Assembly: GCA_965206595.1 (NCBI GenBank) | Contig: OZ242214.1 | Coordinates: 1,216,001 to 1,280,000, forward strand | Source of the DNA: Candidatus Latescibacterota bacterium | GTDB taxonomy: Bacteria > Latescibacterota > UBA2968 > UBA8231 | Direction: 5' to 3' | DNA: 64,000 bases | Shown: positions 2,678-30,886 of the stretch, piece by piece | How positions within the stretch are numbered: the stretch's first letter is position 1 | How the letters are laid out: each line of letters begins with the position of its first letter | Made by a program: the position numbers and the translations under genes | Notes under the pieces: model-generated | What the model saw: only the letters and a program-made list of their open reading frames with translations | What the model was told of the DNA's origin: nothing | Database searches by the model: none

Positions 2678-5407
2678 ATGGCAATGGTGAGACGATTCGC
2701 CGTGAGTGGTTCCCTTCTGCTGGCGTTGACGGTCGGCGCCCACGGCCAGGACGGACACGACATCCGCGCCAATCAGGTCGTCATCTCCGATGAGGAGCAC
2801 TGGCAGCAATGGCGCTTCCCCGAGGGCACGGTGGACGTGCTCCCGGCAGGCGCAGTGGGGCCTCATTTCTGGAGCAAGGGGACGAGCGTCGCCACAGAGC
2901 ACGATATTGTGCAGAACCTTCGCAGGAATCCGCCCGAGTACCTCTCCAGGAAGGCGCCGGAGGAGTTCGAGCTCCTCGACGCCATCGATGCGGGGTCGAA
3001 TCACCGCGCAACGGCGAATCTCTTCGACGGCGACCCGAGCACCTACTGGGAGCCCTCCTTTCCCGATGACGAGACCATCGATCCGGCATCTCAGGCGTGG
3101 TTTACCGTCGATCTGGGCAAGATCGTCATGGCCGAGAAGATCGTGCTCAAGTTCGTGGACGAGGATCTGGGTGACCCCTTCCTTCTATTCGATGTTTTGA
3201 CGTCGGACGGACAGACGCCCACAGCAGCGCAAGGCGCCGAGAGCCTGGAGTTCGCGCGCGTGCACACGACCCTCGAGCCGAACAAGAGCCAGCGCCAGTT
3301 CGAGATCGATATGTCCCAGTTCAGACGCGTCGACACGGTGGAGAGATGGTGGGCCTTCGAGACCTTTGCAGAGCAACAGGGCTGGCACCCCTCGTTTGCT
3401 GAGGTGACACAGGATCCGGAAGTGCGCAAACGCCTGGTTCGCCACGTGCAGGTCGTCGTTTACGGAAGCGCCTTCAGGCGGGGCCGCCAGGTGAGCGAGG
3501 CGATCTACGATTCGGTGCGGGTGAATGCGCCCCGGGATACGGGGATGGTAGAGTACGTGAAGAAGCTCCTACCGAGTGGAGAGCGGGCGGTCTCGAAGGA
3601 CGTGTGGGAGGAGTTGCCGTCTCACCGGCAGGGACCGGTTCGATACTGGCTCCGCGAACGTCCCAGGCTGGCGGAGCTGGAGGTCTGGTCCAAGGGGGAC
3701 GACATCTTCGAGGGCTTCGCGAGAAGATGCCAGGAGCCGCCGTGCCTGACGTGGACGCTTCCCAATGTGCTCAAACCGCCGGCCACGCTCATCGACGGCG
3801 ATCTGTCGAGTCATCAGAACCTCTCCCTTTATATCGGCCAGACCCCTGATTGGTACAACATGCGTGTCGATCTGGGCTCTCTGTTCTGGGTCGACGGCTA
3901 CCGCCACATGATTCAGTTCCGGGGAACGCCGCACGCCCGCACCCTGCCGGAGTGGGGGCTCGACTTCTCCGACGGCACCCGCGAAGTGGACGGCAGTCTG
4001 AAATGGGACAGGAAGCTCTTCGACGAGACGCCTTTCACGCGATCGCGCATCATCGCCCTCGACGAGGTCGACTTCGAGCCGATCAAGGCCCGTTACATGA
4101 GACTGGAATGGCTCATGCACCCGGAGGGCACGGCGGCTCTCACCGTCAACCTGGCGGAGGTCCAGGTCTTCGGGGAGGGCTACCAACCCGAGGTGACACT
4201 TACTTCTGACCTCATCCGGCTGAGAGGGAACCGCAACCTCTTTGCCATCGAGTGGGATGCCGACACACCCCTTGGCACCGAGGTGGCCCTGCAGACGCGG
4301 ACGGGCGCCAGGCTCGATACGGTGTTCCACTACTTCCGCATCGTCGGCGAAGACACCCTCGAGATCGTCAGGGAGACCGAGGAGGAGGCCAAGAAGGCGT
4401 ACGACAAACTCCGGCTCGGAAAAGGGCCGATCGTGCCCGAGCTGGTCGCCGCCGGTGACTGGGAGCCGTGGAGCGAGCCGTACACCGATCCGGAGGGAAG
4501 CGCCATCACCTCGCCCTCGCCGCGGGAGTACCTGCTCGTCAGGGCGACCCTGCGGTCAGACGATCCCCATACTCGAGCTACGCTCAAGAGCATCCGTCTC
4601 AGCTTCGACAGTCCGGTGGCCCGACGGCTGGTCGGCGAGCTGACACCGGGATTGGTCGAGCTCATGGGAGAGGCCCGACCCTACATTCTCGAGGTAGCGG
4701 TCGACAACCTGACAGCCGGATTCGACGAGCTTCTCGTGAGGCCGCCGGCGGGGATGCAGCTCACCTACGGGACGCTCTACGCCGGCGAGGAGCCGGAGCT
4801 GGCCGAGGCGGCCGATATGAGCGGGCTCGCCCTGTCCGGTGTCGAGACGCTGGCCGAAGGGGACAGTCTCCATCTCAGCTTCCCCGCCATCGAGCGCTCC
4901 GACGACGTGGAGAAGATCAGGCTGGAGTTCACCGGCACTCTGTTCTCGGCCGGCGGGCGCCTGCATGCCAGCCTGCGCCGCAGCGAAAGCGGACAGGGGG
5001 CCTGGCAGCGGGTAGACGAGAAGGTTCCCCGCTCCTCTCTCATGGTACTGGCTACGACGCAGAGTAACGATCTGTTCAAGGACTTGACGATCGATCCGCC
5101 GGTCCTGACGCCGAATGGGGACGGCGTGAATGAAGAATTGACCCTGGCCTTCACCGTCCTGCTGGCTGCTCCCAACACGGCGGTCAAAGCGGAGATCTTT
5201 GATCTGAGCGGGCGGCTTGTGGCTCGCCGCGTCGAGGTGCGCGAGGTGAGCGCAGGGCCTCTCGAGATCACCTGGGATGGACGTGACCAGCAGGGAGCAC
5301 TCGTGCCGCCCGGGGTGTATGCCGTGAGGCTCGGCGTCGATGGTGACACCGGTGATACCGCGCTGACCAGCCTGGAGCTCCTGCGCACCATCGCCGTGGC
5401 CTACTGA
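2678..5407 (+). CDS. Large secreted protein, discoidin-like segment plus C-terminal FlgD-Ig domain (paralogue of upstream gene)
   Basis: RBS aggag, signal peptide, NLFDGDPSTYW...WFTVDLG, and LTPNGDGVNE...WDGRDQQGALVPPGVY. Confidence 0.8.
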   Translation: MAMVRRFAVSGSLLLALTVGAHGQDGHDIRANQVVISDEEHWQQWRFPEGTVDVLPAGAVGPHFWSKGTSVATEHDIVQNLRRNPPEYLSRKAPEEFELLDAIDAGSNHRATANLFDGDPSTYWEPSFPDDETIDPASQAWFTVDLGKIVMAEKIVLKFVDEDLGDPFLLFDVLTSDGQTPTAAQGAESLEFARVHTTLEPNKSQRQFEIDMSQFRRVDTVERWWAFETFAEQQGWHPSFAEVTQDPEVRKRLVRHVQVVVYGSAFRRGRQVSEAIYDSVRVNAPRDTGMVEYVKKLLPSGERAVSKDVWEELPSHRQGPVRYWLRERPRLAELEVWSKGDDIFEGFARRCQEPPCLTWTLPNVLKPPATLIDGDLSSHQNLSLYIGQTPDWYNMRVDLGSLFWVDGYRHMIQFRGTPHARTLPEWGLDFSDGTREVDGSLKWDRKLFDETPFTRSRIIALDEVDFEPIKARYMRLEWLMHPEGTAALTVNLAEVQVFGEGYQPEVTLTSDLIRLRGNRNLFAIEWDADTPLGTEVALQTRTGARLDTVFHYFRIVGEDTLEIVRETEEEAKKAYDKLRLGKGPIVPELVAAGDWEPWSEPYTDPEGSAITSPSPREYLLVRATLRSDDPHTRATLKSIRLSFDSPVARRLVGELTPGLVELMGEARPYILEVAVDNLTAGFDELLVRPPAGMQLTYGTLYAGEEPELAEAADMSGLALSGVETLAEGDSLHLSFPAIERSDDVEKIRLEFTGTLFSAGGRLHASLRRSESGQGAWQRVDEKVPRSSLMVLATTQSNDLFKDLTIDPPVLTPNGDGVNEELTLAFTVLLAAPNTAVKAEIFDLSGRLVARRVEVREVSAGPLEITWDGRDQQGALVPPGVYAVRLGVDGDTGDTALTSLELLRTIAVAY

Positions 5408-5597
5408 ACCCGAAAAAGCCGCCACACATGCCCTCGGCGCTCGTCACCCCCGACGGGCGCGGTATGCCCATGCGACGATTGCTCACATCGAGCGCCATCC
5501 CGCTCGGGCGAAGCCGTCGCAGCCTGTCCGACGAAATGCGCAAATCGCCGTCGGGATGTGTCGGCGCTGGCTGCTGCCTTCTCGGCGGAGCACAATC

Positions 5598-6676
5598 ATG
5601 GACAACCCCCGTGGGAACTGGAGCGGAGGAGCCGGGGACGGCAAGACCGCACTCGAGCATGATATTCGCTGCGGCGGCGCCCTACTCAATCAGGAGAGCG
5701 GAGACTGGCCGGCCTACTTTGCGGTCAGCTCCCCCAGCGCCTACAACGCCGCCCGCCCTCACCTGGCCCGAGAGCCCGCAGGGGTCGAATACGCTCGGTT
5801 GTTGGACTGGACCCACCTTCAAAAAATCGCTGACGAGGTACCAGACAAAGTTGGGCTCATCGTCGGGATCGGAGGGGGGATAGCCCTCGACGCGTCCAAG
5901 TACGTCGCGCTGAAGAAGGGGATGCCGCTGGTGCTGGTCCCGATGATCGTCTCGACCGGCGCTATCATCCACAGCATTTTCGCCAAGTGGGACGGCCACA
6001 AGACCATCGGCCCCAGCAGCACGTGGCCCTGGATCGACTTTGACCATGTCGTAATCGACTGCGATCTCGTGCTGCAGGCCCCCTACTATCTGAACACCGC
6101 GGGGCTCGGCGACGTGCTCTGCGGATACGCCGGATTCTGTGAATGGCGGCGGAGCACCAGGCTCGGCATCGGTGAGCCCTTTGATGAGTCTGCCATCGCC
6201 GTTACTTCTGAGTATTCCACCATATCGCCACGGAGTTCCCCGCGACCCTGAACTCGGACGGAGACCTGACGGCGGACAGCATTCGCCTGAATGTGAAAGC
6301 CGTCCAGGACCGGGACGGGAAAAGCCTCCGGCACCCGGCAGCTCCAGCCTCCGATCATGCCCTTTGGCTTGGCGCAGAGGAAGTCAACGGCAGGAGCTGG
6401 ATCCACGGCGAGTTTGTCGCTTTTGCAGCGGTCGTCGTCGCATGGCACTGCGAAGACGACACCGAAACGATCACAGGTTGGCTCGACGTGTGCAAGGTGC
6501 GCTGGCGCCCCGGTGAGATCGGGGTCAGCAGGGATGAGCTGCGCAAGTCTCTCGAATTTGCTCCCAACTACATGTCCGACGCCACCCGCGAAAACGACAT
6601 GCCCTCGAGCTTGTGGACCGAGCCGATCACCGGCGCTCGGTTCGATGCGCTGTGGGAGTTCCTCGAGAAGGCATAG
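5598..6676 (+). pseudogene. Glycerol-1-phosphate dehydrogenase / iron-containing ADH-like gene, frameshifted (copy 1)
   Basis: VGIGGGIALDASK, LVP.IVSTGA, AGLGD and IHGEFVA motifs are split over two frames. One base is missing near 6215 relative to copy 2. Confidence 0.75.
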
Positions 6677-6748
6677 AGCCATTGCCGCCCGCCCTTGTTC
6701 CTTGACTCAAACAGCCGAAAGTCGGTTGCTATTCCGGTCTCCATCCAC

Positions 6749-9306
6749 AAACCGTGCGACTGGCGCCATCCTGGAGAATTGAATGGAGAGAATCACCGCC
6801 ACGGTACCCGTCACCACCCCGCCCTCATGGGCCGTGCAACAGCGGCTCCTGCTGCACACCCTGGAGCGATCTGCCCATCCTTTCTGGGACCGGTACGTGC
6901 GCGACGACGGCGAGCTATACTGGGACGAGAGTTTCGGCGGCGTCAGCCCCGACGATTATGGTTTCGGCGGCAGCAGCCCCGACGATTTCTACGAGGCGTT
7001 CTTCAGCTGGCCCCTCGTCTACCTGATGGGGGGTGGCGACCATCTGCTGGAAATGGCGCATCGCGGCTGGGAAGGGGTCACGCGACTGCTCACCCGGTGC
7101 GGTACCGTGCACAAGGAGTACGCCCGGTGCGAAGACCAGTTCCACCAGTCGGAGAGCGACATCTTCTTCTACCACCTGTGCATGGCCGATCCGGCCAATG
7201 CCAGCCTCGCCATACGGGCGCGACGCTTCGCCGGATTCTACCTGAACGAGGATCCCGAAGCGATCAACTACGATCGCGAGCACCGGATCATCCTGTCGCC
7301 GTTCAACGGCTCGGGTGGCGCTCGCCAGACACCGACTGACGCGCAGCCGCACCCGTTTCGCGCGCGCGAGAACTACGGTCTGCCCACGTACGAACTACCC
7401 GACATCCAGAGCTGGAAGGACACGCAGGACGACGAAAAGGCGAGGCGTGTGGGCGAAGTCATGCACGGACGCTGGTACAGAGGGGACGTGGCCGCCAACC
7501 TCGCGATCTCGAGTCTGGTCACGAACGCCTTCCTGCTCACCGGCGAGGAGAAGTATCGCGACTGGGTTGTCGAGTACACCGACGCATGGATCGAGCGGGC
7601 GCGGGCCAACGACGGGTTGATCCCGGACAACGTCGGTCACTCCGGGGAGGTGGGGGAATACATCGACGGCAAGTGGCACGGCGGATTCTACGGCTGGACG
7701 CTCTATCACGGCTGGTACAACCTGCAGATGACGGTGACCGTCGCAGCCGCCAACGCCTATCTGCTGACGCGGGACAACCGCTACCTGGAATTTCCGCGGC
7801 GTCAGATGGACCGGATACTCGAGCTGGGGCAGATTCGCGATGTCCGGCGCGAGCACATGAGTCTGAGGCACCACTGGATCGGCCAGTTCACGGCCATGGG
7901 CGATCGGACGGAGACCTTGCTGGTGCCGTACCGTTACGGCGACGCCGGTTGGTTCGACTGGCAGCCCCCTTCACCCGTCTTCCTCGCAGCGCTTTGGAAC
8001 CTGTCGATGGCTGACGAGGATTGGCAGCGCATCGAGCGCGTGCGCGAAGCCGAGGCCTACGACTGGAATGCCGTAATCTCCTACCGTACCAAGGAGGATT
8101 CCGGTCACGAGCAACCCTGGCTGCGTTTCCTGGCCGGCGCCAACCCGGACTATCCCGAATGCATCCTGCAGGCCAGCTACCAGCAGGTGGCCTGGCGCCT
8201 TGCCCTCGTTCGGGCCGAGACCGAAGTCGGCACCCATCACGACGTCCACCGCTGGCAAGACACGGACCCGGTTTCGTCCGAGGCCCTCATCCAGCTGACC
8301 CTCGGCGCCCCGCAGCCGATCTACAACGGCGGCCTCCTCCACTGCCGGGTGCGCTACTTCGACCGTGGGGCAAGACGCCCGGGACTTCCCGAGGATGTCG
8401 CCGCCCTGGTCGAGAAGTTGGAGGCCGACCGCACCGTAGTCCGCCTCGTCAATCTCAACCCGCAATGGGACCGCGAGCTGATCGTGCAGGCCGGTGGCTA
8501 CGGAGAGCACCGGTTCACGGACGCGGAGTACGACGCGTTGACGAGTCCCTATCCGGGCCCCCCCAACCGCTATGCGCCCGACCCCACCACGGCGGAGAGG
8601 CGCCGGGTTTCGGTGAACGGCAAGCACCTGCAGGTGGCGCTGCCGGCCGGGACAGAGATGATCCTTGAGCTGGGTACGCAGCGCTACGTGAACGAACCTG
8701 CCAGCGCCGGCCCTTTCTGACTCGCACCCGCTACTTCCTCTTCTCAACCAGCTCGATCTCGTAGTTGTCGGGGTCGGTGACGAAGGCCATCCGTCGCTCG
8801 TCCTTGAACTTCTCTCGCCAGCCGTCGGGCCAGATCTCCAGACCCTCTTTCTCAGCTCATTTTCTTCAAGGTCGTCGTTCCAGAACCAGAAGGGGATGAT
8901 GCCGAACTCGCGCGGCGGATCGAGGAAGGTTTTAAAGGCTTCGTCGAGACTCATGGAACCCATTCAACGCAGAGGACGCGGAGAGCGCAGAGGGTAGGCA
9001 GGGGGTGCGCCCACCTGGACTTGGCGGTTCGAGTAGTGGGGTGGTTGCGTCATTCGGACGTGGCCCAGCGTTGGCGGAGGGCGTCGCCCCACTCGATCAC
9101 TCTGTCACGAGGACTGCCGTCACGAAGCGGTTGCCGAACCAGTCTGCTTTCGTGTTCGAGAAGTTTCGCTCGACACGATGCAACGGCGTCCGCAAACTCG
9201 GGTTCCGAGGCGATGTTCTTCGTCTCCCACGGGTCGTTGTCGAGATCGAACAGCTGCTCCAGGCCGAGGGCGTCGGGGTCCGGTCCTGGAGGGATGAAGT
9301 CCTCGG
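6749..9306. repeat. Segmental duplication of about 24104-27603 with an internal deletion of about 940 bp
   Basis: Matches 24104-26208, then jumps (tctttc-tc-agctc, about 8852) to about 27150-27603. Carries VOC, GH106 and sulfatase fragments. Confidence 0.9.
6783..8720 (+). CDS. Conserved hypothetical protein, 645 aa, possible (alpha/alpha) barrel enzyme (copy 1)
   Basis: Long ORF with RBS ggag, rich in aromatic and acidic residues. Near-identical copy at 24138-26075. Confidence 0.75.
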   Translation: MERITATVPVTTPPSWAVQQRLLLHTLERSAHPFWDRYVRDDGELYWDESFGGVSPDDYGFGGSSPDDFYEAFFSWPLVYLMGGGDHLLEMAHRGWEGVTRLLTRCGTVHKEYARCEDQFHQSESDIFFYHLCMADPANASLAIRARRFAGFYLNEDPEAINYDREHRIILSPFNGSGGARQTPTDAQPHPFRARENYGLPTYELPDIQSWKDTQDDEKARRVGEVMHGRWYRGDVAANLAISSLVTNAFLLTGEEKYRDWVVEYTDAWIERARANDGLIPDNVGHSGEVGEYIDGKWHGGFYGWTLYHGWYNLQMTVTVAAANAYLLTRDNRYLEFPRRQMDRILELGQIRDVRREHMSLRHHWIGQFTAMGDRTETLLVPYRYGDAGWFDWQPPSPVFLAALWNLSMADEDWQRIERVREAEAYDWNAVISYRTKEDSGHEQPWLRFLAGANPDYPECILQASYQQVAWRLALVRAETEVGTHHDVHRWQDTDPVSSEALIQLTLGAPQPIYNGGLLHCRVRYFDRGARRPGLPEDVAALVEKLEADRTVVRLVNLNPQWDRELIVQAGGYGEHRFTDAEYDALTSPYPGPPNRYAPDPTTAERRRVSVNGKHLQVALPAGTEMILELGTQRYVNEPASAGPF

Positions 9307-10216
9307 CTGGCCTCCTTCAACAGCCGGGTCAGGCGCCGGATGTCGACACGGGCCAGCTCATCGGCCGTGAGGTATTCAACCAGGACGGCGCGGCTCGCGG
9401 CGCCGAAGAGATCGGCGAAGTGCTGTCGGTATTCGGGAAAGGCCAGGTCGAGGAGACTGATGAGATGACCTTTTTCGGCCTTGGCGGTCTGGGCGCACTG
9501 GAAGCGCAGCCGCGTGAGGTCCCGCAACTGGCGTACCCTGGCGATCGGGAATGGCGCAGACCTTCAGGTGCGTCTCGCGCAACAGATGGGCGATCAACAG
9601 CGCATCGGCACTGTCGGTCTTGGTGCCACGGATGGTGATGTTCCGCCGCGCCGTCACGACCAAGGGGTTGATTACTTCGACCGGATAGCCAGCCTGGACC
9701 AGCGTTTCGGAGAGGACCATTCAGTAATGTCCGGTCGCCTCCATGCCGACGCGGATGTCGGCGGGGGGTTGTCCCGTTTCGGTGAGCCGTTGACGCAGCA
9801 GTTCAACCCCGTCGCGAGAATGCGGCACGGCGAGATTCCGGAAGACGGTCTGGCCGTCCTCATCCAACAGCGTGGCGCGATGGCTTCGTTTCGCCACGTC
9901 GATACCGAGAGTCCACATTGGCGAGCTCCTTGGTCGAGAGACCGAAGCTGCCCACGATCAGGGTGACGCCAGCTGGCACATCCTCGTAGCCAGATCAGGG
10001 AACCGATGTCCCATCAAGCGGTAAGTGCATGTGCTGGCGAGATGGCGGTCTATCCGAGAGGACCGAGCCTCGAGGAAGCGGAAAGCCAACCCCAGCAGCT
10101 TCGCTGATCCAGCGATCGCATCGCTGGCATCGGAAAAGCAAGCACTGAGAGTACGCTGCTGTTCACCGTCTCGCCGGTCACAAACCACCTGAAGTGGTCT
10201 GCACCTATTATACGAG
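9307..10216 (-). mobile_element. IS110-family element, copy A (left end intact, transposase truncated and pseudogenised)
   Basis: MWTLGIDVAK...GMEATGHY(*)...VINP...KTDSADA DEDD RuvC-like motifs from 9918. TGA at 9721, frameshift near 9540. The roughly 295-nt 5' non-coding end is shared with copy B. Confidence 0.9.
9919..10200 (-). ncRNA. Putative IS110 bridge RNA (copy A)
   Basis: Lies downstream of TATAAT (10207-10212, minus strand). Guide-like segments at 10073-10081, 10050-10055, 10015-10024 and 9983-9988, separated by hairpins. Confidence 0.7.
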
Positions 10217-10716
10217 GAAGAATAACGGGCATTATCGTTACTTTGGACGAGGTAGTATGGGCCGAAAATCAGGCAGTGTCGAGGGGCGCCGAGGGGGAGA
10301 GGCTGAATCAGATGGTCTCCCGGTCCATCAATCGGGCGGTCTCGATGGCTCAGAAGGGATTGAATGTCGCTTCCGGGCGCGGTCCTCCCCTACAGAAATC
10401 AGATTATGAGCTCTAAAGGGGCGAATTCGAGCTGGGACTGCGGTGAGCGGCGAGGCGGGGCGATTGGTGGTGGACGAGCGGAAAGACCGACCCCTCCCAG
10501 ATAGGCCCGGATGGATGTATGGTCGGTCAGTGCCGCGAGGATCCGCATGGAGCCGCCACATTCATAACATTTGGTCACATCAATGGCGAACACTCGGGCC
10601 AGAAGTGTTGCCCAGGCCAGACGGTGGGCGCGTTGCTGTGGTAGGATGAGAGCTGCGGCAGTCCCGCACTCGCCCGCCCCACTCTTGGTATCCACGGATC
10701 GGAGAGGGTGACCCAC
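10217..10716 (-). mobile_element. IS91/ISCR-family remnant: transposase C-terminus plus oriIS end
   Basis: WATLLARVFAIDVTKCYECGGSMRILA...GLSARPPPIAPPR is the IS91-type C-terminal Zn ribbon. About 180 nt downstream the sequence ends GCCCGTTATTCTTCCT at the IS110 insertion. Confidence 0.8.
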
Positions 10717-14567: not shown

Positions 14568-14776
14568 GTATAGGAATTATGAAGGGCCCTTTTTATTGCA
14601 TGGTCAAGTAGTGGCGGCACCTCTTCCGCCCTTTTTTCCGCCTAGTAGAACAAGTTCCGGTAGACTGCACACAGAGACACGGTCCTCGAGGACCTGCAGA
14701 CCTTGATGGCCGCTAATGCGACACATAGACGACTTAAACCCTTCACAGCAGACTATTGTCGCAGCACGTCCGGGAA
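14568..14776 (-). mobile_element. 209-bp non-coding repeat, putative IS91-type MITE (uninterrupted copy)
   Basis: About 99% identical to 29900-29905 plus 30684-30886. The minus-strand end GCCCTTCATAATTCCTATAC is oriIS-like, and TTC occurs at both ends. Confidence 0.7.
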
Positions 14777-17725: not shown

Positions 17726-17791
17726 GGGATGATTCTCCTCGAGCCACGCACGGCGACCTCGCCGTTTCGCAGATCGCCCATGGACAATCCT

Positions 17792-18870
17792 CTATGCCTT
17801 CTCGAGGAACTCCCACAGCGCATTGAAGCGAGCGCCAGTGATCGGCTCGGTCCGCAAGCTCGAGGGCATGTCTTTTTCGCGGGTGGCGTCGGACATGTAG
17901 GTGGGAGCAAATTCGAGAGACTTGCGCAGACTCATCCCTGCTGACCCCGATCTCACCGGGGCGCCAGCGCACCTTGCATACGTCGAGCCAACCTGTGATG
18001 GTTTCGGTGTCGTCTTCGCAGTGCCATGCGACGACGACCGCTGCAAAAGCGACAAACTCGCCGTGGATCCAGCCCCTGCCGTTGACTTCCTCTGCGCCAA
18101 GCCAAAGGGCATGATCGGAGGCTGGAGCTGCCGGGTGCCGGAGGCTTTTCGCGTCCCGGTCCTGGAGGGTTTTCACATTCAGGCGAATGCTGTCCGCCGT
18201 CAGGTCTCCGTCCGAGTTCAGGGTCGCGGGGAACTCCGTGACGATATGGTGGAAATACTCAAGTAACGGCGATGGCAGACTCATCAAAGGGCTCACCGAT
18301 GCCGAGCCTGGTGCTCCGCCGCCATTCACAGAATCCGGCGTATCCGCAGAGCACGTCGCCGAGTCCCGCGGTGTTCAGATAGTAGGGGGCCTGCAGCACG
18401 AGATCGCAATCGATTACGACATGGTCAAAGTCGATCCAGGGCCACGTGCTGCTGGGGCCGATGGTCTTGTGGCCGTCCCACTTGGCGAAAATGCTGTGGA
18501 TGATAGCGCCGGTCGAGACGATCGTCGGGACCAGCACGAGCGGTATCCCCGTCTTCAGGGCGACGTACTTGGACGCGTCGAGCGCTATCCCCCCTCCAAT
18601 CCCGACGATCAGCTCAACTCCGTCTGGTAGCTTGTCAGTGATGTTTTGAAGGTGCGCCCAGTCCAACAATCGAGCGTATTCGACCCCGTTGGGCTCTCGG
18701 GCCAGGTGAGGGCGTGCTGCGTTGTATGCGCTGGGCGAGCTGACCGCAAAGTAGGCCGGCCAGTCGCCGCTCTCCTGATTGAGAAGGCCGCTGCCGCAGC
18801 GAATATCATGCTCGAGTGCGGTCTTACTGTCCTCGGTTCCTCCGCTCCAGCTCCCACGCGGGTTGTCCAT
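17792..18870 (-). pseudogene. Glycerol-1-phosphate dehydrogenase-like gene, frameshifted (copy 2, inverted)
   Basis: Highly similar to 5598-6676. Frameshifts near 18262 and 17931. Confidence 0.75.
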
Positions 18871-19142
18871 GATTGTGCTCCTCCAAGAAGGCAGCAGCCA
18901 GCGCCGCTACGTCCCGACGCGCTATTTGTCCGTCGTACAGGCTCTGTCGGCACTGAGTTCCCGGGTCATTTCCGAACCCCAGCGACCGTGAAACCGGCTC
19001 TCCCGTAGAATGCAATTGCACGCATATCTGTTGAGTGTACTCCACCCGGCAAGATGATGCGAGATCGGTAGAAATGGCGAGCAGCCAACTCTATCCCAGC
19101 TTTCAACCAAACTATCTAAAATGCCCTACCGAGGAGTAGATA

Positions 19143-23946: not shown

Positions 23947-24137
23947 CAGGCAACGCGCGCAATCACCGCGGATACTGACGAGGGTGTCGTCAGATTCGGT
24001 AAACGACAGCCCTATCGAAGCTTTCTCTGAGTCTCATGACTCAGGGAGTTGGTCAAACTTCACGAGTTCTTGGTAGTAGAGATATCCAACGTCCCTGCGC
24101 ATCAAACCGTGCAACTGGCGCCATCCTGGAGGATCGC

Positions 24138-26075
24138 ATGGAGAGAATCACCGCCACGGTACCCGTCATCACCCCGCCCTCATGGGCTGTCCAGCAGCGT
24201 CTCCTGCTGCAGACCGTGGAAAGATCGGCCCTTCCCTTCTGGGATCGGTACGTGCGCGACGACGGCGAGCTATACTGGGACGAGAGTTTCGGCGGCGTCA
24301 GCCCCGACGATTATGGTTTCGGCGGCAGCAGCCCCGACGATTTCTACGAGGCGTTCGACAGCTGGCCCCTCGTCTACCTGATGGGGGGTGGCGACCATCT
24401 GCTGGAGATGGCGCATCTCGGCTGGGAAGGCGTGACGCGACTGCTCACCCGCTGCGGTGCGGTGCACAAGGAGTACGCCCGGTGCGAAGACCAGTTCCAC
24501 CAGTCGGAGAGCGACATCTTCTTCTACCACCTGTGCATGGCCGATCCGGCCAATGCCAGCCTCGCCATACGGGCGCGACGCTTCGCCGGATTCTACCTGA
24601 ACGAGGATCCCGAAGCGATCAACTACGATCGCGAGCACCGGATCATCCTGTCGCCGTTCAACGGCTCGGGTGGCGCTCGCCAGACACCGACTGACGCGCA
24701 GCCGCACCCGTTTCGCGCGCGCGAGAACTACGGTCTGCCCACGTACGAACTACCCGACATCCAGAGCTGGAAGGACACGCAGGACGACGAAAAGGCGAGG
24801 CGTGTGGGCGAAGTCATGCACGGACGCTGGTACAGAGGGGACGTGGCCGCCAACCTCGCGATCTCGAGTCTGGTCACGAACGCCTTCCTGCTCACCGGCG
24901 AGGAGAAGTATCGCGACTGGGTTGTCGAGTACACCGACGCATGGATCGAGCGGGCGCGGGCCAACGACGGGTTGATCCCGGACAACGTCGGTCACTCCGG
25001 GGAGGTGGGGGAATACATCGACGGCAAGTGGCACGGCGGATTCTACGGCTGGACGCTCTATCACGGCTGGTACAACCTGCAGATGACGGTGACCGTCGCA
25101 GCCGCCAACGCCTATCTGCTGACGCGGGACAACCGCTACCTGGAATTTCCGCGGCGTCAGATGGACCGGATACTCGAGCTGGGGCAGATTCGCGATGTCC
25201 GGCGCGAGCACATGAGTCTGAGGCACCACTGGATCGGCCAGTTCACGGCCATGGGCGATCGGACGGAGACCTTGCTGGTGCCGTACCGTTACGGCGACGC
25301 CGGTTGGTTCGACTGGCAGCCCCCTTCACCCGTCTTCCTCGCAGCGCTTTGGAACCTGTCGATGGCTGACGAGGATTGGCAGCGCATCGAGCGCGTGCGC
25401 GAAGCCGAGGCCTACGACTGGAATGCCGTAATCTCCTACCGTACCAAGGAGGATTCCGGTCACGAGCAACCCTGGCTGCGTTTCCTGGCCGGCGCCAACC
25501 CGGACTATCCCGAATGCATCCTGCAGGCCAGCTACCAGCAGGTGGCCTGGCGCCTCGCCCTCGTTCGGGCCGAGACCGAAGTCGGCACCCATCACGACGT
25601 CCACCGCTGGCAAGACACGGACCCGGTTTCGTCCGAGGCCCTCATCCAGCTGACCCTCGGCGCCCCGCAGCCGATCTACAACGGCGGCCTCCTCCACTGC
25701 CGGTTGCGCTACTTCGACTGTGGGGCCAAACGCCCGGGGCTACCCAAGGATGTCGCCGCCCTGGTCGAAAAGGTGGAGGCCGGCCGCACCGTGGTCCGCC
25801 TCGTCAATCTCAACCCGCAATGGGACCGCGAGCTGATCGTGCAGGCCGGCGGCTACGGAGAGCACCGGTTCACGGACGCGGAGTACGACGCGATGACGAG
25901 CCCCTATCCGGGGCCCGCCAATCGCTATGCGCCCGAACCGATCACGACCGCAAAGCGCAGGGCCGCCGTGAACGGCAAGCATCTGCAGGTGGCGCTGCCG
26001 GCCGGGACAGAGATGATCCTTGAGCTGGGTACGCAGCGCTACGTGAACGAACCTGCCAGCGCCGGCCCTTTCTGA
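24138..26075 (+). CDS. Conserved hypothetical protein, 645 aa (copy 2)
   Basis: RBS ggagg. Near-identical to 6783-8720. Confidence 0.78.
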   Translation: MERITATVPVITPPSWAVQQRLLLQTVERSALPFWDRYVRDDGELYWDESFGGVSPDDYGFGGSSPDDFYEAFDSWPLVYLMGGGDHLLEMAHLGWEGVTRLLTRCGAVHKEYARCEDQFHQSESDIFFYHLCMADPANASLAIRARRFAGFYLNEDPEAINYDREHRIILSPFNGSGGARQTPTDAQPHPFRARENYGLPTYELPDIQSWKDTQDDEKARRVGEVMHGRWYRGDVAANLAISSLVTNAFLLTGEEKYRDWVVEYTDAWIERARANDGLIPDNVGHSGEVGEYIDGKWHGGFYGWTLYHGWYNLQMTVTVAAANAYLLTRDNRYLEFPRRQMDRILELGQIRDVRREHMSLRHHWIGQFTAMGDRTETLLVPYRYGDAGWFDWQPPSPVFLAALWNLSMADEDWQRIERVREAEAYDWNAVISYRTKEDSGHEQPWLRFLAGANPDYPECILQASYQQVAWRLALVRAETEVGTHHDVHRWQDTDPVSSEALIQLTLGAPQPIYNGGLLHCRLRYFDCGAKRPGLPKDVAALVEKVEAGRTVVRLVNLNPQWDRELIVQAGGYGEHRFTDAEYDAMTSPYPGPANRYAPEPITTAKRRAAVNGKHLQVALPAGTEMILELGTQRYVNEPASAGPF

Positions 26076-26694: not shown

Positions 26695-27260
26695 GGGCTC
26701 ATGACCTTCCACGATCCCTCAGGAACCTCGATGCGGAGGATGTCGTGCTGGTGAGGAGAGAGGACGCGGATAGAAACCGGATCGATCGTATCGCCGCCGT
26801 CGACGCGACCGAGAACGGTGCAGACGTGCCGATCGAGGAGGGCTCGACCCGTGTTGGGGCGCTAGAAGCCGTCGTGCGGCCCTTCGACGACGTGTTCCCA
26901 CAGACGGATGCACCGGCCTGCGAAATCGGGGTTCTCCGCCACGACGGCCCCACAAGCGGAGCCTGACGGGTAGGATCCTTCGTCGTAGAGGATAACTTTC
27001 ATGTCGAGAGAAGCGGCTTCCTCTACGACGCGGCGGACGAGTCGGAAGTACTCGTCGGTGAGGTAGCCCACGCGGCGGGAGAGGCCGATTCGCGCGTGGG
27101 GCATGACGCCGCCGAACCCCGCTTCGTGAAACGCACGGAGCTGGCGAATCAGCTCATTTTCTTCAAGGTCGTCGTTCCAGAACCAGAAGGGGATGATGCC
27201 GAACTCGCGCGGCGGATCGAGGAAGGTTTTAAAGGCTTCGTCGAGACTCATGGAACCCAT
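26695..27260 (-). pseudogene. Glycoside hydrolase (GH106 alpha-L-rhamnosidase-like) N-terminal fragment
   Basis: PFWFWND, GFGGVMPHARIG, ILYDEGSYPSGSACG. In-frame TAG at 26862, then truncation. Confidence 0.75.
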
Positions 27261-27346
27261 TCAACGCAGAGGACGCGGAGAGCGCAGAGGGTAGGCAGGG
27301 GGTGCGCCCACCTGGACTTGGCGGTTCGAGTAGTGGGGTGGTTGCG

Positions 27347-28768
27347 TCATTCGGACGTGGCCCAGCGTTGGCGGAGGGCGTCGCCCCACTCGATCACTCT
27401 GTCACGAGGACTGCCGTCACGAAGCGGTTGCCGAACCAGTCTGCTTTCGTGTTCGAGAAGTTTCGCTCGACACGATGCAACGGCGTCCGCAAACTCGGGT
27501 TCCGAGGCGATGTTCTTCGTCTCCCACGGGTCGTTGTCGAGATCGAACAGCTGCTCCAGGCCGAGGGCGTCGGGGTCCGGTCCTGGAGGGATGAAGTCCT
27601 CGGGTTCCTTCGGCCTGTACTCGGTGACGTACTTGAACCGCCCGGTGATGATCGCACGGCCCCAGTAGTTGCTCTCCACGTAGGCATAGTCGGGCCAGTC
27701 TGAGGCACCCCTCTCGAGGAGGGGACGCAGGCTTCTGCCTTGCACATCGTCAGGCGCGTCGACAGCTGCGTAGTCGAGGACGGTTGGGAGGAGGTCGACG
27801 CCCGACACGAAGTGCTCCCGGTCGAATCGCCCGCTTCCCACGTCCAGACGATCGCCAAGGGTTGCGACGATGGTGGGCACGCGGATGCTCTCTTCGTAAA
27901 GCGCGAACTTCTGGAATGTCCGGTGCTGTCCGTTAGCTTCGCCGTGGTCGGCCATGAAGATGATCAGCGTGTTGTCCCGGAAGGAACTCTTTTCCAGGGC
28001 ATTGAGGATCAGGCCGATCTGCTGATCCGCCATTTCTGTGAATCGGGCGTGGTTCCACGCCAGAAAGCGCCATTGCTGGTCTGTCCAGTCAGCGATTCCG
28101 TTGAGGATCCGATGATGGATGAGCGGCTGTTGGCCGCGGCGGAAAACCTGTTGGACGACCGTCTCTCGTTCGTCGTAATCGAAGTTATCGGGCAGGGGCG
28201 GGAGGTCGTTTTCGGAGAAACCCTGCTCTTCGGGTCCGGGGATCGTCTTGACTTCGTGATTGTGCTCGTACTCGCAGATGTCGTGGGGGTTGACGAGGCC
28301 GATCTGAAGGTAGAACGGGTTCTCTGAGTCCCGCCGGTCGAGGAAGTCGATCAGCGCGTGGGTGGAGACGCGATCGTAGTACTCTCCGCCCCCGGCAGCG
28401 ATGTCCCACTTGCCCGTGTAGAGGTTCTGGAAGCTGTCCCGCATGGGTCGCCCGCCGATGTGCCACTTCCCGCAATGAACGGCGTCGTAGTCGCTTCGGT
28501 TTAAGACCTGGCCGAGGTCGGGGATGTCCTCGTGCATCAGGCCGCTGTTGAAGCAGACACCGTTCTCGGACGTGTAGCGTCCCGTCATCCAGCTGGCGCG
28601 AGAGGCCGAGCAGACTGGATCGGCACAGTAGCTACGCATGAAGCTGGTCCCGTTCCGGTGCAGGCGATCCATGTGAGGCGTTCGGACGTGAGGATGCCCG
28701 TAGGCCGATACGACGTTCCACGTCTGTTGATCGGTGTTGATAAAGAGAATATTCGGCCGGTCCATCAC
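27347..28768 (-). CDS. Formylglycine-dependent sulfatase
   Basis: PNILFINTDQ, CSASRASWMTG (CxAxR), GKWH, ADHG, YEESIRVP, LFDLDNDPWE. Confidence 0.92.
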   Translation of the reverse strand: MMDRPNILFINTDQQTWNVVSAYGHPHVRTPHMDRLHRNGTSFMRSYCADPVCSASRASWMTGRYTSENGVCFNSGLMHEDIPDLGQVLNRSDYDAVHCGKWHIGGRPMRDSFQNLYTGKWDIAAGGGEYYDRVSTHALIDFLDRRDSENPFYLQIGLVNPHDICEYEHNHEVKTIPGPEEQGFSENDLPPLPDNFDYDERETVVQQVFRRGQQPLIHHRILNGIADWTDQQWRFLAWNHARFTEMADQQIGLILNALEKSSFRDNTLIIFMADHGEANGQHRTFQKFALYEESIRVPTIVATLGDRLDVGSGRFDREHFVSGVDLLPTVLDYAAVDAPDDVQGRSLRPLLERGASDWPDYAYVESNYWGRAIITGRFKYVTEYRPKEPEDFIPPGPDPDALGLEQLFDLDNDPWETKNIASEPEFADAVASCRAKLLEHESRLVRQPLRDGSPRDRVIEWGDALRQRWATSE

Positions 28769-29896: not shown

Positions 29897-29918
29897 GAAG
29901 TATAGACAAGCGGTAACA

Positions 29919-29924
29919 TGTAAA
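29919..29924 (-). promoter_or_regulatory. -35 hexamer (TTTACA) of the IS110 circle-junction promoter
   Basis: Joining the two ends at the CT core gives TTTACA-N17-TATAAT. Confidence 0.75.
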
Positions 29925-30388
29925 TCCCGATCGCGGGCAAATATCTGTTCTCCGTTTAGTTGAGGATAGGGGTGTAGGGACGATTGTTTTTAAGGACGCT
30001 GAAGACAACGTGGAGCATCTTGTTGGCGACGTGGGTGAGGGCGACGAGGTGATGCTTGCCGCGGTCGATTTGCCGTTGATAGACCTGGACAAACAGCGGA
30101 TCATGGCTTTTGAAGACGGCGATCTCCGAGGCCTGCATGACGGCGGTGCGCAGATAGCGACTGCCGCGCTTGGACATCCTGCCGCAGCCGACCTGATCGC
30201 CGCTGTCGATCTGCTTGACGTCGATACCGGCGGGGGACTGTCCCGTTTCGGTGAGCCGTTGACGCAGCAGTTCAACCCCTTCGCGAGAGTGCTGCACGGC
30301 GAGATTTCGGAAGACGGTCTGCCCGTCCTGACCCAACAACGTGGCGCGATGACTTCGTTTCGCCACATCGATACCGAGAGTCCACATT

Positions 30389-30667
30389 CGGCGAGCTCCT
30401 TGGCCAAGAGACCGAAGCTGCCCACGATCGGGGTAACATCAGCTGACACATCCTCGTAGCCAGATCAGGGAACCGATGTCCCGTCAAGCGGTAAGTGCAT
30501 GTGCTGGCGCGTATGGCGGTCTATACGAGAGGATCGAGCCTCGAGGAACGAATAGCCAACCCCAGCAGCTTCGCTGATCCAGGATACCTCACTGGCATCA
30601 AAAAGCAAGCACAGGAAGTACGCAGCTGGTCGCTGTCTCGCGGGGCCAGACCCAGCTGAAGTGGCCT
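30389..30667 (-). ncRNA. Putative IS110 bridge RNA (copy B)
   Basis: Target-binding loop at about 30514-30558 and donor-binding loop at about 30437-30509, with guides matching the flank and the end junction. Confidence 0.78.
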
Positions 30668-30673
30668 GCACCT

Positions 30674-30679
30674 ATTATA
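30674..30679 (-). promoter_or_regulatory. -10 hexamer (TATAAT) of the IS110 circle-junction promoter
   Basis: Perfect TATAAT 2 nt inside the core. Conserved in copy A (10207-10212). Confidence 0.78.
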
Positions 30680-30683
30680 CGAG

Positions 30684-30886
30684 GAATTATGAAGGGCCTT
30701 TTTTATTGCATGGTCAAGTAGTGGCGGCACCTCTTCCGCCCTTTTTTCCGCCTAGTAGAACAAGTTCAGGTAGACTGCACACAGAGACACGGTCCTCGAG
30801 GACCTGCAGACCTTGATGGCCGCTAATGCGACACATAGACGACTTAAACCCTTCACAGCAGACTATTGTCGCAGCACGTCCGGGAA
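30684..30886 (-). mobile_element. 209-bp IS91-type MITE, copy interrupted by IS110
   Basis: Near-identical to 14574-14776. Its last bases (gtatag) lie on the far side of the IS110 at 29900-29905. Confidence 0.7.

Follow-up and report, generated by a model that had tools for sequence, protein, structure and literature searches.

The 64,000-nucleotide (nt) stretch of DNA analysed here, referred to throughout as the window, comes from a Candidatus Latescibacterota bacterium (GenBank assembly GCA_965206595.1, contig OZ242214.1, positions 1,216,001 to 1,280,000 of the forward strand). On its minus strand lie two damaged copies, A and B, of one insertion sequence (IS) of the IS110 family, and each of them abuts the 3' end of a sequence related to a different group of mobile elements, the rolling-circle transposons of the IS91 family. 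In the latter, the end downstream of the transposase gene (tnp) is the one that holds the origin, oriIS. The junctions, the relatives of these elements in other genomes and the RNA predicted at their left end make it probable that A and B are relics of an IS110 lineage that is guided by a bridge RNA and whose speciality is the last few bases of origin ends of the IS91 type. The features on which this reading is built are collected in the table.

Table. Features of the IS110 copies and of their IS91-related surroundings (positions in the window; LT and RT, left and right target; LTG and RTG, left and right target guide; LDG and RDG, left and right donor guide)
Feature	Position	Strand	Remarks
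IS110-family copy A	9307..10214	minus	left end with bridge RNA, then ~200 DEDD recombinase codons; first IS base 10214
Core dinucleotide CT, copy A left junction	10215..10216	minus	sequence reading
Bridge RNA core, copy A	9972..10103	minus	LTG 10073-10083 (TTCCGCTTCCT), RTG 10050-10055 (GGATAG)
Donor-binding loop, copy A		minus	LDG 10016-10025 (TTACCGCTTG), RDG 9983-9988 (TACGAG)
3' non-coding end of IS91 remnant, left target	10217..10398	minus	ends in oriIS-like GATAATGCCCGTTATTCTTC
C-terminal stump, IS91-family (Y2 HUH) transposase	10399..10629	minus	tblastn match 10426-10629; stop codon 10399-10401
Uninterrupted paralogue, empty site	14568..14776	minus	LT 14574-14583, core 14572-14573, RT ATAC 14568-14571
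IS110-family copy B	29906..30681	minus	internally deleted, both ends intact
Bridge RNA core, copy B	30443..30574	minus	LTG ATTCGTTCCT, RTG GTATAG
205-bp repeat hosting copy B	30682..30886	minus	3' end is an oriIS-like terminus without transposase gene

Copy A retains its left end. In the minus sense, flank, core and left end read ...GATAATGCCCGTTATTCTTC-CT-CGTATAATAGGTG; about 295 nt of non-coding sequence follow, and then a recombinase frame that begins MWTLGIDVAKRSHRATLL, with its start codon at 9918-9916. The frame is broken by an in-frame stop and by frameshifts, and its 3' part has been lost at 9306/9307, where the element is joined to a duplicated sulfatase C-terminus (8852-9151 equals 27149-27448). 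Copy B has CT cores on both sides, at 30682-30683 and 29904-29905, and reads ...GGCCCTTCATAATTC-CT-CGTATAATAGG ... TTACCGCTTGT-CT-ATACTTCAAACGG in the minus sense. The middle of its gene is gone, with 57 N-terminal codons joined to about 85 C-terminal ones, and the element measures 776 nt compared with 1532-1534 nt in intact relatives. Both copies are dead remnants. The original prediction had placed their junctions and flanks correctly; the 3' truncation, stop and frameshifts of A and the internal deletion of B are additions to it. Since A and B are only ~88% identical across the 465 nt that they share, they must be separate and old insertions. A Pfam search found no match on the IS110 and IS91 fragments of the window, and their identities were therefore taken from intact relatives: 205 residues of copy A, and 150 of copy B, can be aligned to the intact protein of locus L016. 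The genome holds only three copies of this IS110 lineage, A, B and a third called L003, and all three abut IS91-related sequence.

The neighbourhood of the copies is heavily rearranged. It contains segmental duplications and 1.1-kb inverted repeats that are 94-100% identical and include fragments of iron-containing alcohol dehydrogenase (Fe-ADH) and sulfatase genes; the duplicated segments are 5549-6678 and 17790-18919, 6748-7047 and 24103-24402, and 8852-9306 and 27149-27597.

What do the two copies adjoin? Upstream of copy A, in the same orientation, a frame reading ...WATLLARVFAIDVTKCYECGGSMRILAALTDHTSIRAYLGGVGL... is 69% identical over 68 residues to positions 411-478 of an intact 486-residue transposase from a related genome (L177; tblastn expectation value (E) 9e-19), a protein that carries the domain Y2_Tnp (PF04986) and the N-terminal zinc-binding domain Zn_Tnp_IS91 (PF14319). 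The fragment in the window comprises only the tail beyond the domain, and the next open reading frame (ORF) upstream is an unrelated AAT-family gene, so that what remains of the IS91 gene beside A is a 5'-truncated stump. An IS91-type C-terminus had been predicted about 180 nt from the insertion; this C-terminus is indeed there, with 182 nt between stop codon and CT core, whereas of the gene itself just the stump survives. The intervening 182 nt are built like the ends of two intact IS91-family elements (L179 and L184), which follow the pattern ...GATAATGC(T/C)(G/A)TTTAT....C-CT-A..C.

Copy B sits in a repeat whose two copies in the window (30682-30886 and 14572-14776; 205-209 bp) are 99% identical. 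The second of them is uninterrupted and ends ...TTCATAATTC-CT-ATAC, or in a fuller reading GGGCCCTTCATAATTC-CT-ATACTTTCAG; in the genome census described below it has the number 47. The same ATAC recurs past the right end of copy B (...TTACCGCTTGT-CT-ATACTT), and these bases, together with the uninterrupted paralogue, indicate that the IS110 element entered the repeat and not the reverse. The paralogue thus confirms that copy B interrupts a 209-bp repeat at a site of the type TTC-CT-ATAC, as had been proposed. When the 205-bp repeat was searched for in the genome and in the family, only its last 30-75 nt were found elsewhere, and for this reason the repeat is not demonstrable as a complete miniature IS91 derivative.

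Among 168 genomes scanned from the phylum, six carry the donor-guide motif of the RNA, at 11 places in total, and protein-based scans added loci from one Latescibacterota metagenome-assembled genome (MAG) and three metagenome contigs. In a maximum-likelihood tree, 12 rows (A, B, L003, L007, L006, L014, L015, L016, L017, L018, L097 and L098) fall on one branch, with a support of 100 in the Shimodaira-Hasegawa-like approximate likelihood ratio test (SH-aLRT); L191, of which only 34 residues align, was left out. The intact elements of this clade are ~1.53 kb long, and the recombinase of L005/L016 has an N-terminal DEDD (RuvC-like) domain (PF01548, E 2e-40) and a C-terminal Transposase_20 domain (PF02371, E 2e-17). 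One genome, a MAG assigned to another genus (G013, loci L190 and L200), has a contig (C53) that is 99.87% identical to the window region over 3020 nt and 100% identical over a 231-nt repeat query; this could reflect mis-binning, the same population or a very recent transfer.

The checks that had been suggested with the original prediction all came out in its favour, the collection of copies from the genome and its relatives among them. The ten readable left junctions of the clade are without exception in IS91-related sequence, and the insertions point the same way as the IS91 transposase; nine of them are at a CT located 4 nt from an IS91-type 3' terminus. The exception is L003, whose neighbours are an N-terminal fragment of IS91 and 3' non-coding sequence of the IS91 type. 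Coding remnants of IS91 on the same strand lie upstream of seven of the ten insertions and end 149-428 nt before the junction: 211 nt for A, 149 nt for L003 (the N-terminal fragment), 240 nt for L007, 189 nt for L016 (a weak match, E 1e-5), 428 nt for L017, 218 nt for L018 and 157 nt for L097. The flanks of L007, L017 and L018 are 88%, 90% and 77% identical, respectively, to the 3' non-coding ends of intact IS91 copies, and at B, L006 and L015 the end core is present with no IS91 coding remnant upstream. No IS91 similarity was found in the flanks of nine elements of the sister group, nor at any of 145 more distant IS110-family loci, 91 of which are at least 3 kb long. A CT was read at the left junction of 18 out of 19 elements, L015 having TT (the upstream flank of L100 is cut by the contig start), and at the right junction of 19, in L015 only with a one-base shift. 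Beyond the far side of the IS110 element, the terminal four nucleotides of the host end (ATAC, AAGC, ATGC or ATCC) are found in B, L003, L007, L006, L015, L017 and L018. Finally, L017 and L018 differ at just 3 of 1532 positions (99.8% identity) and yet are inserted in the ends of two different IS91 subfamilies, which speaks for recent mobility.

Two observations on individual loci may be added here. In L097 (4240-4480) the right flank begins inside an IS91 N-terminal coding region, corresponding to residues 62-141 of a reference; an origin end here borders on an internal piece of a different IS91 copy. Moreover, a second IS family, IS1595, may favour the same spot: an element of this family (DDE_Tnp_IS1595 and a zinc ribbon; L186 of genome G010, 6842-7972, minus strand) ends in CCGGTTAAATGGATACCCCCAA directly beside the oriIS core of L006; the same IS1595 end, in the opposite orientation, interrupts an IS91 3' end ~200 nt past the stop codon in L181 (G001); a similar 22-mer precedes the core in L015; and L188 (G016), near 3780, belongs with these cases.

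That the ends downstream of tnp are origin ends follows from their position and from published oriIS sequences. The oriIS of ISCR27, an insertion sequence common region (ISCR) element, is GCGGTTGAACTTCCTATACC and is placed 236 bp past the stop codon (PMC8894482); the right-end/oriIS sequence of ISCR1 is GTGGTTTATACTTCCTATACCC (PMC13023784); and in a Sphingobium genome the IS91 oriIS is found 167 bp past the coding sequence (PMC5737581). The string TTCCTATAC is common to the ends described here and to the published ISCR1 and ISCR27 origins, and the intact relatives end alike, which speaks for a match of the rejoined sites with known oriIS sequences.

Within the genome itself, the regions downstream of 13 IS91-like C-termini all end in ...AAAAAGGTGCCTCATTTT[T/A]CCTATAC, where the similarity between copies stops. 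A census of the motif [AT][TAC]CCTATAC over the 7.05 Mb genome returned 51 sites. In 19 of these an IS91 transposase C-terminus ends 167-281 nt upstream (a twentieth match, 619 nt upstream of site 17, was excluded from the count); 26 have the form T[TA]CCTATAC, and 20 of the 26 show the full build of an IS91 end (...GGTGCCTCATTTT[T/A]C-CT-ATAC), all of them unoccupied. With ~20 such ends in 7.05 Mb, the fact that three of three IS110 copies abut IS91-related sequence is more than chance would give. The IS91/ISCR family has a specific tetranucleotide (CTTG/GTTC) adjoining its oriIS end. Past ...CCTATAC, 18 of the 20 ends continue with T, and counted from the last C, 14 read CTTN and two CTTG, with a boundary that is uncertain by 1-2 bases. 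Intact IS91-family genes in three related genomes have similar ends 200-290 nt past the stop codon, in the variants ...TTATCCTCA-CT-AAGC (the L176 type), ...TTTATCGGTC-CT-ATAC, ...GTTTATCCTCA-CT-ATGC, ...CATTTTAC-CT-ATAC and ...ATTTATTTGCC-CT-ATCC.

The host ends thus resemble those of IS91 and ISCR elements in lying 167-290 nt past a Y2_Tnp gene and in finishing with TT[C/A]CTATAC or close variants. They differ in that the Latescibacterota elements stand far from the ISCRs of clinical strains, with subfamilies in which AAGC, ATGC or ATCC replaces the terminal ATAC, and in that most copies are 5'-truncated or have no transposase. Among the 19 Y2_Tnp matches of this genome, 16 begin at model position 76 or later, and most adjoin an intact origin end; most IS91 copies of the genome have thus lost their 5' part and retained the origin end, as if transfer beginning at the origin had often broken off early. 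Duplications of these ends also occur: L203 (G020) has three tandem 38-nt origin-end units at 1500-1640, and downstream of tnp in L176 (G016) an 18-nt duplication (CTTATCCTCACTAAGCGC twice) ends an intact IS91-family element.

The left end of the IS110 elements encodes a predicted RNA whose loops were read with the guide rules of Durrant 2024 (PMC11208160). An RNAalifold consensus of 16 sequences forms two stem-loops with internal loops, comprising 24 pairs, 10 of which show compensatory changes. The target loop has the layout GGYT-(LTG...CT)-hairpin-(RTG)-AGACC, and the donor loop the layout ..CAC-(TTACCGCTTG)..hairpin..GGC-(TACGAG), in which TTACCGCTTG repeats the last bases of the right end and TACGAG reverse-complements the left-end sequence CT+CGTA. 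How well do the target guides fit the places where the elements are found? For all 17 elements compared, the RTG matches the right flank in at least three of the four non-core positions; seven matches are perfect, and the other ten are off by one position, mostly the last. Non-cognate pairs of RTG and flank reach three or more in 51 of 272 cases, with a mean of 1.5 out of 4. In copy B the RTG, GTATAG, is the reverse complement of its actual right flank CTATAC; further examples are GCTTAG for CT-AAGC in L018, GGATAG for CT-ATCC in L015 and TTGGAG for CT-CCAA in L102 of the sister group. The LTG agrees with the left flank at a mean of 6.7 positions out of 9, compared with 5.0 for shuffled flanks, and reaches at least 7 in nine of 18 elements as opposed to 465 of 9000 shuffles; it is perfect in L007, L006 and L101. 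The guides differ in step with the termini of the IS91 subfamilies (CT-AAGC, CT-ATCC and CT-ATAC). These comparisons favour the proposal that the bridge RNA reads the site, as judged from base matches.

The relatives of the clade are informative too. Sister-group elements L019, L099 and L020 are located at ...CT-TTCC or ...CT-TTCT, with guides that match (e.g., GGAAAG for CTTTCC), and in L099 and L020 the left flank looks like the ribosome-binding site (RBS) and start codon of a gene encoded on the other strand. Set side by side, the sequences of sister group and clade show retargeting on one RNA scaffold. In L191 (G012, 1260-1310), a right-end remnant stands directly before a left end, forming a chromosomal junction of right end, CT and left end (RE-CT-LE) that may be a tandem or dimer relic. 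This junction contains a sigma-70-like promoter (TTAACT-17-TATAAT), the only positive result of the sigma-70 scan, and it fits a promoter formed on a circular form of the element.

On this basis, a course of events can be proposed. The target-binding loop would be set to the last ~13 nt of an oriIS end of IS91/ISCR type: the LTG, which has the sense sequence ...TTTxxxC-CT, would bind the bottom strand, and the RTG, reverse-complementary to CT-A(T/A)x(C), the top strand. Recombination at this core, with a chemistry presumably that of the homologous IS621, would then put the IS110 element 4 nt inside the IS91 terminus and in the direction of its transposase. For the incoming element, termini that are dispensable and present in many copies may serve as safe landing sites, and for the host the insertion would set 1.5 kb between the origin body, with its recognition part, and the last 4 nt, probably disabling that IS91 copy. 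The junctions, the uninterrupted target site, the identification of the flanks as IS91, the architecture of the RNA and the matches between guides and flanks are direct observations; the disabling of the host remains a deduction, as all the hosts seen are already fragments. A more ambitious picture would make the clade a hyperparasite of rolling-circle transposons, with guides that track the subfamily termini (CT-ATAC, -AAGC, -ATGC and -ATCC), insertions that silence IS91 copies and an outward-facing, promoter-like host end that reads into the IS110 left end and feeds its RNA and recombinase. We regard it as tentative and, taken as a whole, rather doubtful; that the host end drives IS110 expression is speculation.

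A different explanation holds that the clade recognises a short and widespread regulatory or miniature-repeat motif (...CTTGACC-N-AAAGGCCCTTTATAATTCCTATAC), for instance an outward promoter module, for which IS91 would be a bystander and the origin function irrelevant. The host of copy B is one of a very common class of ends that have no transposase. Its 24-nt motif AAAGGCCCTTTATAATTCCTATAC, allowing up to three mismatches, has ~160 hits in 36 of 76 family genomes, and the reversed pattern gave none in the same 76. The ~65 nt upstream of the motif are conserved and include a CTTGACC box that is also present in transposase-linked ends. For copy B's type of end, IS91 coding sequence is found within 1.5 kb of just one of 30 fetched copies, which weakens the expectation of the original prediction that an IS91 tnp lies within 300 bp as a general rule; for this end type it is not the rule. 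In loci L202-L241, many motif copies stand directly before GGAG-like sites, which resemble ribosome-binding sites, and ten loci share one flank, as if orthologous; outward promoters are also known in the oriIS region of ISCR1. These ends may be short origin-proximal remnants, miniature derivatives, or co-opted or mobile promoters. Against a bystander role for IS91 are the coding remnants upstream of most clade insertions, and the fact that the guides of different members fit the termini of different IS91 subfamilies, unlike the transposase-less motif. In addition, the sigma-70 scan returned no promoter at the window's empty site or at copy B. The last 16 nt of the family-wide motif (TTTATAATTCCTATAC) differ from the published ISCR1 oriIS (TTTATACTTCCTATAC) at a single position, and with 15 of 16 positions in agreement, "motif" and "origin end" are one sequence family. 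All told, the motif explanation looks improbable.

Could the order of events have been the reverse, with IS91-family elements inserted beside pre-existing IS110 copies? One study does describe insertion of IS91 elements next to short, specific tetranucleotides (PMC5737581). However, the IS91 termini are split by the IS110 element in B, L003, L007, L006, L015, L017 and L018, and both the paralogue of B's host and the 20 ends of the census are uninterrupted; these data contradict the reverse order, to which we give hardly any credence. The same holds for the idea that the neighbourhood arose by chance or as a by-product of rearrangements. The window is certainly rich in segmental duplicates and inverted repeats, and copy A runs straight into a duplicated piece of a sulfatase gene, but the same junction recurs in four other genomes and in metagenome contigs, guides and flanks covary, and the 145 distant IS110 loci are free of IS91 similarity. 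Coincidence is thereby contradicted and is scarcely credible.

For the reading preferred here, a lineage specialised on IS91-type origin ends, there are nevertheless several points that count on the other side. The sample is thin and consists mostly of MAGs, with 11 places in six of 168 genomes and three metagenome contigs, and G013 is not independent, being a near-identical copy of the window region. The groups in the tree took their labels from the very feature in question, and two of the members, L014 and L098, were assigned without a readable left junction. At L003 the junction (..TTGATACTAC-CT-CC..) is off the canonical position and seems shifted or deleted, and what immediately precedes the end core in L006 and L015 is part of, or similar to, the end of an IS1595-family element. 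Every host IS91 seen is a fragment, a truncated copy or an end devoid of transposase; the one-in-30 count given above belongs here as well, and the transposase-less ends may be something other than working origins. As for the RNA, the two-loop assignment rests on the alignment made in this analysis, and Rfam has no model for the left-end RNA, the only match being to a small nucleolar RNA (snoRNA) at E 0.22, as expected by chance. LTG matches are weak in A and B (6/9 each) and in L016 and L018 (5/9 each), so that either insertions tolerate mismatches or the guides drifted later.

How does the clade compare with systems already described? In the IS110 family, IS621 targets repetitive extragenic palindromic (REP) sequences, and its promoter forms across the junction of right and left end (RE-LE). 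Members of the IS1111 subgroup, which have the guide RNA at the other end, occur on other mobile elements: IS4321/IS5075 in the terminal repeats of the Tn21 family and the IS1111-attC elements in integron attC sites. Mycobacterial IS110 elements of the IS900 type, for their part, insert between ribosome-binding site and start codon. The sister group, and not the clade of the window, is like the latter in occupying sequences that look like an RBS and start codon on the opposite strand. With IS4321/IS5075 and IS1111-attC the clade shares the specialisation, with a single orientation, on a conserved functional end or site that belongs to a different mobile-element family, and the use of recurring, dispensable, multi-copy sites; it is unlike them in belonging to the IS110 subgroup and in having as its site the origin end of an element of the rolling-circle (HUH Y2) kind. 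Given the elements that target Tn21 ends and attC sites, the principle of an IS110-family element homing on the sites of another mobile element is not new.

IS621 itself compares as follows. A promoter across the RE-LE junction, here in L191, is a common trait. So are (Durrant 2024, PMC11208160) the domains DEDD_Tnp_IS110 and Transposase_20, the CT core, the left-end RNA upstream of the gene, and two internal loops in which the 5' side carries the left target or the left donor in the sense direction, and the 3' side the reverse complement of the core plus right target or right donor. In contrast to IS621, the clade has as its target the terminus of another transposon family, its protein is larger (396-429 residues), its RTG effectively reads the core and 3-4 nt, and its LDG matches 10 nt of the right end and not the core. 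The original prediction knew of no description of oriIS targeting, and in open-access papers and bioRxiv no report of an IS110-family insertion into oriIS was found; this search did not extend to supplements, and the target tables of Durrant 2024 could hold cases.

Because the copies in the window are dead, the finding matters as comparative biology and not as an active system of this genome. ISCR elements are widely held to move antibiotic-resistance genes, and the work marks their oriIS as readable by a bridge recombinase; an effect on IS91 mobility is a prediction. If the hyperparasite picture is true, natural or re-guided relatives could mark or disable gene-capture elements of the ISCR type, considering that the family-wide motif is one position in 16 away from the ISCR1 oriIS. 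The IS110 family is the natural source of bridge recombinases, and its natural targets show how guides evolve. To the safe sites already known for the family (REP sequences, attC sites and Tn21 ends), the origins of rolling-circle transposons would now be added, and with them a natural case of a transposon family that preys on another family's replication origin.

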